Origin: Escherichia phage WPEC2
Strand: one strand, 5' to 3'
Sequence record: PV691511.1
DNA: 64,000 nt
Both the position numbers and the translations under genes were made by a program. The notes beneath the pieces are model-generated. The model was not told the DNA's origin. It made no database searches and worked only from the letters and a program-made list of their open reading frames with translations. Shown here in pieces: positions 62,279-63,027 of the stretch; the stretch's first letter is position 1; the number at the start of each line of letters is the position of its first letter.

Positions 62279-62761
62279 ATGTCACAAGAACAAGATAACA
62301 CAATTCAAAAATATGCTCGACCAGAAGAAGTAGTTGAGATTCCGTTAGATGGAAACAGATCTGTTACTTTCCGTATTATGAAGTGGAGTCCATCTAAAGT
62401 GTTTGACAGGATTCCAGAATTAGGTAGTGTTCTGGTTGTTCCTATGACTATGTATAGCACAGCAACAATGTCCGCAGACGAAGACCTTGAGTCACGTATT
62501 GCTATGGCATTGATCCAACTTTTTGCAGGTTTGGAAGAAAAGAATTTAACTGTCTTTTTGCGTAAAATTTTAGATGAGGTTTATACTCAAGACGGTTATA
62601 ACGTTGCAGAAAATTTTGATGAATTATTTATGGCTCACCCAGAACTAGTGTTAGATCTTACTGCTAAAGTTCTGGAGGTAAACTACGGCCCTTTTTTCAA
62701 ACGAGGTTTCGGAAAACTGTTCACACAGCTTCAGGCGATGACGAGTTTAGCAGCAAATTAA
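62279..62761 (+). CDS. tail assembly chaperone (G-like)
   Basis: 160 aa between tube and tape measure, contains slippery heptamer near 3' end. Confidence 0.6.
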   Translation: MSQEQDNTIQKYARPEEVVEIPLDGNRSVTFRIMKWSPSKVFDRIPELGSVLVVPMTMYSTATMSADEDLESRIAMALIQLFAGLEEKNLTVFLRKILDEVYTQDGYNVAENFDELFMAHPELVLDLTAKVLEVNYGPFFKRGFGKLFTQLQAMTSLAAN

Positions 62762-63027
62762 CACCTGCGATTGAACATGCTATCGACATAGCAACGAAAA
62801 CCCTTACTTTGAAGTGGTATGAGGTTATTCTTTGCAAAGTCGTTAAAGATACCTCGGAAACACTGAAAACATTGGATAACTACGGTGTAGATTATCTTTT
62901 AAAACTATATGAGTATTTAACATACGAAGAGTATGTTGAAGCCATGTATGTTAAAGACACTTCAATAAAGAGAAAACATCAAAACCAGACAAATAAAATG
63001 TCAGATTTGTTTAAGAAACTTGTTTAA
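62279..63027 (+). CDS. tail assembly chaperone, -1 frameshift fusion product (GT-like)
   Basis: joining frames at 62692-62698 gives a longer product ending at 63027; track ORF 62809..63027 has only a TTG start. Confidence 0.5.
62692..62698 (+). other. -1 programmed frameshift slippery site TTTTTTC
   Basis: 0-frame CCT TTT TTC; -1 frame is open from 62668 to 63027. Confidence 0.55.

Follow-up and report, generated by a model that had tools for sequence, protein, structure and literature searches.

In phage lambda, the short and the long tail assembly chaperones are made at a ratio of ∼30:1, and the G/GT shift that gives rise to the long one is not known to need any stimulatory RNA structure. 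The gpE/gpE+E' frameshift of phage P2 was reportedly described by Christie et al. in 2002, and the P2 heptamer is T_TTT_TTG. In the dnaX gene of E. coli, the −1 shift takes place on A_AAA_AAG, with a Shine-Dalgarno-like element upstream and a hairpin downstream. The lambda gpG/gpGT pair is documented in several studies (Levin, Hendrix & Casjens 1993; Xu, Hendrix & Duda 2004, 2013, 2014; reviewed in PMC5009743). In lambda, the tape measure protein is the partner of the part common to both products, and the tube protein that of the extension (PMC5009743). G/GT frameshifting is a textbook feature of the long-tailed phages, and its efficiency is 2–3-fold higher in the P2-like phages (PMC5009743).

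The nearest prior proposal to the locus described here is the Pakpunavirus/Andersonviridae frameshift (PMC12846349, December 2025). The chaperone genes of the Vandenendeviridae (Pakpunavirus) and the Andersonviridae, which that article links to the Vequintavirinae via a common virion architecture, are proposed there to carry a −1 frameshift with GTTTTT as its conserved motif. In the accessible part of the article, the locus analysis covers the Vandenendeviridae and Andersonviridae, not the Stephanstirmvirinae or Vequintavirinae.

We analysed a stretch of 64,000 nucleotides from Escherichia phage WPEC2 (PV691511.1; called the window below), in which the GC content is 38%. A 1.4-kb stretch around the putative frameshift site is 100% identical to the Escherichia phages Mt1B1_P17, ESCO37 and others, and shares 99.4–99.5% identity with phAPEC8. 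As judged by sequence, the phage belongs to the phAPEC8 group, genus Phapecoctavirus of the subfamily Stephanstirmvirinae. Pfam and PHROG matches gave the order sheath, tube, chaperone, −1 ORF and tape measure at this locus, with the following annotated genes.

60334..61707, + strand: tail sheath gene, 457 aa (PF11863 DUF3383, E = 7e-20; phrog_205 'tail sheath', E = 3e-100)
61754..62233, + strand: tail tube gene, 159 aa (PF11681 KPP10_Orf10; phrog_280)
62279..62761, + strand: gene for the tail assembly chaperone, whose short product 'G' has 160 aa and 18.2 kDa (ATG start, zero frame)
63048..64000, + strand: tape measure gene, TTG start, running past the end of the window (phrog_16051 'tail length tape measure protein', E = 1.7e-174)

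The sheath gene is also labelled tail sheath in RefSeq NC_052662, where a CDS start coincides with the start of the tape measure gene at 63048. The counterpart of the sheath protein in phage phi92 is gp130, the tube protein has 92% identity with phi92 gp131, and the N-terminus of the tape measure protein is homologous to phi92 gp134. As the cryo-EM study of phi92 (2026) identified gp130 as the sheath, gp131 as the tube and gp134 as the trimeric tape measure (PMC13450770), the roles of the three window proteins are supported by these homologues. In the phi92 record, the exact places of the chaperone and the −1 ORF are occupied by gp132 and gp133, both absent from the list of virion components in the cryo-EM study (PMC13450770). 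The phi92 homologues are thus not among the modelled virion proteins, as is the case for lambda G and GT.

The product of 62279–62761 matches PF21822 Phage_TAC_15 (E = 1.3e-23) and phrog_3840, and by sequence family it is a tail assembly chaperone. A PDB sequence search with this protein gave no match below E = 0.5, and a fold search gave modest matches only. In the AF2 model of G, order extends to ∼residue 140 and pLDDT is < 50 past the shift site, so that by the model the shift site would fall at a domain boundary.

The elements of the candidate recoding site are as follows.

62668..63027, + strand: open −1 frame, with TAA at 62665–62667 before it and a closing TAA at 63025–63027
62689..62698, + strand: slippery run C_CCT_TTT_TTC, composed of T_TTT_TTC (62692–62698) and the overlapping C_CCT_TTT (62689–62695)
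62698..63024, + strand: 'T' extension of 109 codons, translated after the predicted shift (matches phrog_16039, function unknown)
62698..62761, + strand: dual-coding overlap of the C-terminal tail of G (frame 0) and the beginning of the T extension, Q-T-R-F-R... (frame −1)

The initial annotation had placed T TTT TTC at 62692–62698 in the correct register, with the −1 frame open from 62668 to 63027, within the chaperone gene between tube and tape measure, and had taken this as support for the tail-module assignment. Direct reading of the sequence and a script both returned the same coordinates, register and flanking stops. The Pfam and PHROG matches confirm the order of the genes, and the identity to the phi92 tube supports it as well.

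As the chaperone ATG is at 62279, zero-frame codons begin at 62693 (TTT, 62693–62695, Phe139) and at 62696 (TTC, 62696–62698, Phe140 of 160), which puts the heptamer, read as T_TTT_TTC, in the X_XXY_YYZ register. The product predicted from a shift on the second in-register heptamer, C_CCT_TTT, is identical. The predicted fusion is of 249 aa and 28.8 kDa, as against 160 aa and 18.2 kDa for the short product, with the junction ...VNYGPFF|QTRFRK... and a predicted junction tryptic peptide VLEVNYGPFFQTR (monoisotopic, 1568.80 Da), the zero-frame counterpart being VLEVNYGPFFK (1311.69). Between the −1 ORF and the TTG of the tape measure gene at 63048 there are 20 nt. We consider it highly probable that this locus encodes a lambda G/GT-type chaperone pair by programmed −1 ribosomal frameshifting at TTTTTTC.

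The locus resembles that of lambda in having two overlapping ORFs between the tail tube and tape measure genes, and in a predicted long product that consists of the N-terminal chaperone domain and an added C-terminal domain. It differs from lambda in the heptamer, G_GGA_AAG there and T_TTT_TTC here, although one relative, Barba18A, does use G_GGA_AAG. It also differs in that the window phage is contractile-tailed and its chaperone is of the Phage_TAC_15 family. No sequence similarity of lambda G/T to the window proteins was noticed. With P2, the window phage shares the myovirus morphology, a −1 shift on a T-run heptamer and the location of the genes between tube and tape measure. The two differ in the last base of the heptamer, no homology between them was noticed, and the P2 frameshift has been experimentally demonstrated, whereas that of the window is predicted from sequence. 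PMC12846349 argues along the same lines as we do here: a downstream 'hypothetical protein' is taken to be the C-terminal part of the long chaperone, no stop ever interrupts the −1 frame, and the T-run is retained.

Searches retrieved 358–495 loci homologous to this one. We compared the homologous locus of 16 further lineages with that of the window (17 in all). These comprised phi92, phiWec186, KP2025 and KP13-16 of the Stephanstirmvirinae; rV5, 18-1-2, SSE121, Hena1, pEp_SNUABM01, KB57, CB7, CR9 and UPEC06 of the Vequintavirinae; and the outlying phages Aeromonas phiA019, Rheinheimera Barba18A and Vibrio S4-7. The G proteins of the 16 lineages are 29–82% identical to that of the window. T_TTT_TTC was found in register in every lineage having Phe-Phe at this place (15/15, or 15 of the 17 overall), together with a −1 ORF of 102–128 codons, and a −1 ORF of 93–128 codons was present in all 17. 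Phe139 is always TTT and Phe140 always TTC (15/15 each), and the base preceding them is T without exception. Elsewhere in this alignment, three conserved Phe columns are divided ∼50:50 between TTT and TTC (about 7:8, 7:6 and 8:8). These columns served as an internal control for shared ancestry, which softens the problem of kinship without removing it; the conservation counts are non-independent events because the compared lineages are related.

Two lineages have a different heptamer. In Rheinheimera Barba18A the Phe-Phe is lost, and G_GGA_AAG lies four codons downstream with a −1 ORF of 93 codons. In Vibrio S4-7, A_AAT_TTT occupies the homologous position or one no more than a few codons away, and the −1 ORF has 110 codons. 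The three sequences (T_TTT_TTC, G_GGA_AAG and A_AAT_TTT) offer a clean example of shift-site turnover near one homologous position, and since the substitutes are all of the X_XXY_YYZ form, they point to tandem tRNA slippage. Where a tape-measure gene is annotated directly downstream, it begins about 10–55 nt after the stop of the −1 ORF. Two lineages deviate: the gap is ∼225 nt in CR9, and in Barba18A the next gene is one for an HNH endonuclease. The proposal in the initial annotation that this is the conserved lambda G/GT arrangement is supported across the Stephanstirmvirinae, the Vequintavirinae and the outlying phages, all of which keep an in-register heptamer and a long −1 ORF. The Vequintavirinae read GGC TGT TTT TTC at the site and the Stephanstirmvirinae CCC TTT TTT C. 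The GTTTTT of PMC12846349 is contained in the former, whereas the Stephanstirmvirinae have no G before the run and have the extra overlapping C_CCT_TTT.

Between 62668 and 62808, the −1 frame of the window contains no ATG, GTG or TTG. The first such codon is the TTG at 62809, before which there is no Shine-Dalgarno sequence, and from which RefSeq has the following gene.

62809..63027, + strand: 72-aa 'hypothetical protein' CDS, TTG start (annotation of RefSeq NC_052662)

The downstream ORF could accordingly be a separate 72-aa gene read from its own TTG at 62809, next to an incidental heptamer. It is carried as a stand-alone 'hypothetical protein' in RefSeq/GenBank for the window's own phage and for many relatives, and a PHROG family, phrog_16039, exists for the stand-alone ORF. 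However, the annotated starts of this ORF vary among genomes, some records have no ORF there at all, and the annotation of rV5 resorts to a CTG start, 3 nt ahead of the heptamer. In all 17 lineages, the −1 frame can be followed back as far as the heptamer with no stop.

The pattern of substitutions also argues against a start at 62809. Among the four closest lineages, the differences per codon position of the −1 frame are 0.27/0.20/0.66 in 62762–62808, which resembles the 0.31/0.16/0.54 of the rest of the extension and indicates a −1-frame coding signature upstream of the annotated TTG. In the alignment of the 17 extensions, we found a short R-F-R motif, a variable Gly/Ser/Asp-rich linker and a conserved domain of ∼70 aa. 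The sole invariant residue of this domain, Ala28, and the near-invariant Pro23 are both encoded upstream of TTG 62809. We therefore regard a separate gene as very improbable, and the 72-aa CDS is in our view the 3' part of the GT fusion, annotated in error.

Selection on the −1 frame is also visible where the two frames overlap. Substitutions in 62698–62761 peak at the zero-frame wobble position, and yet the zero-frame wobble bases of Gly143 (GGT, 14/14) and Phe144 (TTC, 14/14) are frozen, as is predicted by selection on the −1-frame R-F-R motif. Across the lineages, the heptamer is preceded by a −1-frame stop at a distance of 3–36 nt, phiA019 having one at only 3 nt, so that entry into the −1 frame would be confined to the heptamer. 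The downstream ORF thus appears to have no start of its own and to be selected from the shift site onward, as is the case in a G/GT pair. A Pfam search with the −1 extension gave no match, and its PHROG matches are of 'unknown function' throughout.

The fused frame could instead be produced by transcriptional slippage, in which RNA polymerase adds one U on the T6 run and a minority of the mRNAs carry the fused frames. The shift site is indeed a six-T homopolymer in 15 lineages, preceded by CCC in the Stephanstirmvirinae, and a paper cited in PMC12846349 argues for a different mechanism, and not ribosomal frameshifting, in the T4-like chaperones. Against this, the G_GGA_AAG and A_AAT_TTT of the two exceptional lineages have runs of at most 3–4 bases and are canonical tandem-slippage heptamers; substitutes that have no long homopolymer point to ribosomal rather than transcriptional slippage. 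To be productive, slippage of bacterial RNA polymerase generally needs runs of ∼8–9 or more A/T, and the run here is of only six T. In addition, the register of the run with respect to the zero frame is strictly conserved, which is needed for slippage of the ribosome and not of the polymerase. Slippage by the polymerase is hence also very unlikely to be the source of the fusion, and we retain programmed ribosomal frameshifting as the preferred reading.

A third reading is that chance or a lost function accounts for the heptamer and the open −1 frame, with only the short product made. It gains some ground from the 81 in-register XXXYYYZ heptamers in the window ORFs of at least 100 aa in this AT-rich genome, but is improbable in the extreme given an extension in the top 1% of the window codon positions, the retention of both elements in lineages in which G has no more than ∼30% identity with that of the window, and the purifying selection on the −1 frame. 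The median −1 extension of the 81 heptamers is 6 codons, and one of at least 109 codons is available at only ∼1% of the 17,808 codon positions in the window ORFs. Two heptamers have longer −1 extensions. Both are inside a spurious ORF (54628–54975) that overlaps a longer ORF (54693–55172), the latter being situated in the −1 frame of the spurious one. The remaining three Phe-Phe dipeptides of the tail genes are encoded as C_TTC_TTC or T_TTC_TTT, which are non-slippery.

For ribosomal frameshifting at this locus, we infer the slippage, its efficiency and the binding partners of the products as follows. For the majority of the ribosomes, translation of 62279–62761 would end with the 160-aa chaperone. 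A minority, in which tRNA-Phe sits on UUU in the P site and on UUC in the A site, would slip one base back on U_UUU_UUC (62692–62698), a slip on the overlapping C_CCU_UUU being an equivalent alternative. The slipped tRNAs would re-pair with UUU-UUU and the −1 frame would be read to 63027, yielding the 249-aa fusion with its Gly/Ser/Asp-rich linker and conserved C-terminal domain of ∼70 aa. By analogy with lambda, the shared N-terminal part may coat the tape measure protein, the extension may recruit the tube protein, and neither of the chaperone products would remain in the virion. In E. coli, U_UU.U_UU.C and C_CC.U_UU.U both allow frameshifting with no stimulator present, and H_HH.U_UU.Y ranks with the most efficient classes, since the re-pairing of tRNA-Phe from UUC to UUU is cognate (PMC4066793).

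We also looked for RNA signals around the heptamer. One candidate is located upstream of it.

62674..62679, + strand: Shine-Dalgarno-like GGAGGT, seen in the sequence 13 nt upstream of T_TTT_TTC

This GGAGGU is a possible frameshift stimulator. It contains the rarer Glu codon GAG, which makes up 21% of the Glu codons in the late genes of the window and is used in 10 of the 13 lineages with Glu at that site. Related forms (GAGGUGA, GGAGGU and AGGUGA) are present in many relatives and absent in KB57, CB7, CR9 and phiA019. As the site overlaps a conserved Leu-Glu-Val, the GGAGGU could also be a by-product of these residues.

No downstream stimulatory RNA structure was detected in seven folded segments from the window and four relatives (z-scores of −0.25 to +1.0), and in this the window is like lambda. 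The consensus fold of five Stephanstirmvirinae is of −2.4 kcal/mol. Covariation is almost absent from it, with a single compensatory pair in a distal stem that is weak, and in the one helix that is stable the heptamer itself is base-paired. A hairpin or pseudoknot of the dnaX/IS type, 5–9 nt past the heptamer, was rejected since no fold beats the shuffled controls. The window shares with dnaX the −1 tandem slip, as predicted here. Its GGAGGU, a possible counterpart of the upstream element of dnaX, is at a distance of 13 nt, within the 6–17 nt stimulator range (PMC4066793). The window differs from dnaX in having no downstream hairpin and a Shine-Dalgarno-like element that is only partly conserved; moreover, the shifted product is longer than the zero-frame product in the window and shorter in dnaX.

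A further, rather doubtful suggestion concerns the efficiency. In the Stephanstirmvirinae, the 10-nt double run C_CCU_UUU_UUC and the GGAGGU/GAGGUGA (with the rare GAG) 13 nt upstream could raise the long:short ratio well above the 1:30 of lambda and nearer to that of P2. If true, the stoichiometry of tail assembly would be tuned in a lineage-specific manner by an rRNA–mRNA interaction and not by RNA structure.

A joined CDS or fusion is annotated in none of the 23 GenBank/RefSeq records that we inspected from Stephanstirmvirinae, Vequintavirinae and related phages. These records give the extension as a 'hypothetical protein' whose start varies or as a CTG-start overlapping ORF (rV5), or leave it unannotated. 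With the 249-aa fusion as query against 5.8 billion predicted proteins, no fused protein was retrieved; all 41 matches are of 158–175 aa and cover the G part only. The rV5 paper mentions neither a frameshift nor a chaperone, and we found no earlier description of the frameshift in the literature on rV5, phAPEC8, phi92, Vequintavirinae and Stephanstirmvirinae, nor a proteomic or reporter record of the fusion in the window's phage group. The frameshift is thus a currently unannotated example of the well-known G/GT kind and changes no concept. Its main value is the correction of the annotation, and it extends the G/GT recoding strategy to a large myovirus clade (Stephanstirmvirinae, Vequintavirinae and relatives). 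Both the curation of these genomes and the engineering of tails call for a correct gene model, because the relatives of phAPEC8, phi92 and rV5 are widely used therapeutic candidates.

The phAPEC8 records carry a 'terminator' feature at some point of the matched 1.4-kb stretch, and the window has the following hairpin.

62239..62258, + strand: terminator-like hairpin between the tube and chaperone genes, with an 8-bp stem (4 GC pairs) and a T-rich tail

From its sequence, this hairpin is a possible attenuator.

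We made several further observations besides the slippery heptamer T_TTT_TTC (62692-62698), the first of which concerns the sequence preceding it.

62674-62679, Shine-Dalgarno-like sequence GGAGGT, located 13 nt before T_TTT_TTC

This sequence contains the rare GAG codon, which is kept at this site in 10 of 13 relatives according to the codon comparison. When the upstream sequences were compared, several relatives had no Shine-Dalgarno-like match of any form. Downstream, within 62698-62761, the alignment showed invariant wobble bases in the zero frame, Gly143 being GGT and Phe144 being TTC in 14/14 sequences each. 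These frozen positions match the conserved Arg-Phe-Arg motif that opens the -1-frame extension.

The heptamer itself is replaced in two distant relatives. Rheinheimera phage Barba18A has G_GGA_AAG (L020:1230-1236) and Vibrio phage S4-7 has A_AAT_TTT (L017:1200-1206), at the homologous position or a few codons away. Both phages have a long -1 ORF, and the conserved domain it encodes is the one seen in the other lineages. We concluded that the shift site has turned over in these two lineages. In Barba18A, an HNH endonuclease gene occupies the place of the tape measure gene of the other phages.

L020:1532-2170, minus strand, HNH endonuclease gene of Barba18A, adjoining the end of the -1 ORF on the opposite strand

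In the background test of heptamers, the only ones having longer -1 extensions came from a spurious ORF.

54628-54975, spurious ORF of 115 aa, overlapping the longer ORF 54693-55172

The phage also carries its own tRNA genes.

30763-32688, cluster of 10 tRNA genes

These are, in the order listed, Met, Arg-TCT, Ser-GCT, Asn, Thr-TGT, Gly-TCC, Gln-TTG, Pro-TGG, Ile-GAT and Met; none of the 10 genes of this cluster is a tRNA-Phe. The CCU codon of the overlapping heptamer C_CCU_UUU (62689-62695) could be read by the phage tRNA-Pro(UGG).

Annotations of this region in two relatives, rV5 and UPEC06, were also compared.

L010:1251-1619, gp050 of rV5, the -1 ORF entered as an overlapping CDS in the RefSeq record
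L016:982-1353, chaperone gene of UPEC06, with an annotated 5' end ∼35 codons short relative to its homologues

The annotated start of gp050 is a CTG located 3 nt upstream of the heptamer. The rV5 annotators recognised the long ORF, but without a proper start codon for it. The UPEC06 chaperone as annotated has 123 aa, compared to ∼157 aa in the homologues.

Among the database records, those of Campylobacter phages (B15 and others) and of Acinetobacter phage vB_AbaM_ABPW7 are 99–100% identical to E. coli Phapecoctavirus in the matched region, and 'Pseudomonas phage' PsgM04F falls in the same clade with ∼73% identity. These records may carry wrong host labels, or the isolates may be contaminants.

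Finally, two intergenic elements were found in the tail module.

61709-61732, GC-rich inverted repeat GGCGGGGGTTAAGCCCCCGTT, directly 3' of the sheath gene stop
62239-62258, plus strand, hairpin AAAGGGCAGAAATGCCCTTT resembling a terminator, with a T-rich tail after it, in the gap separating the tube gene from the chaperone gene

The inverted repeat is devoid of a T-tract, and the terminator scan gave no call there. The putative terminator-like hairpin could reduce transcription of the chaperone and tape measure genes relative to that of the sheath and tube genes. A 'terminator' feature is listed in phAPEC8 records, somewhere inside the matched 1.4-kb stretch.
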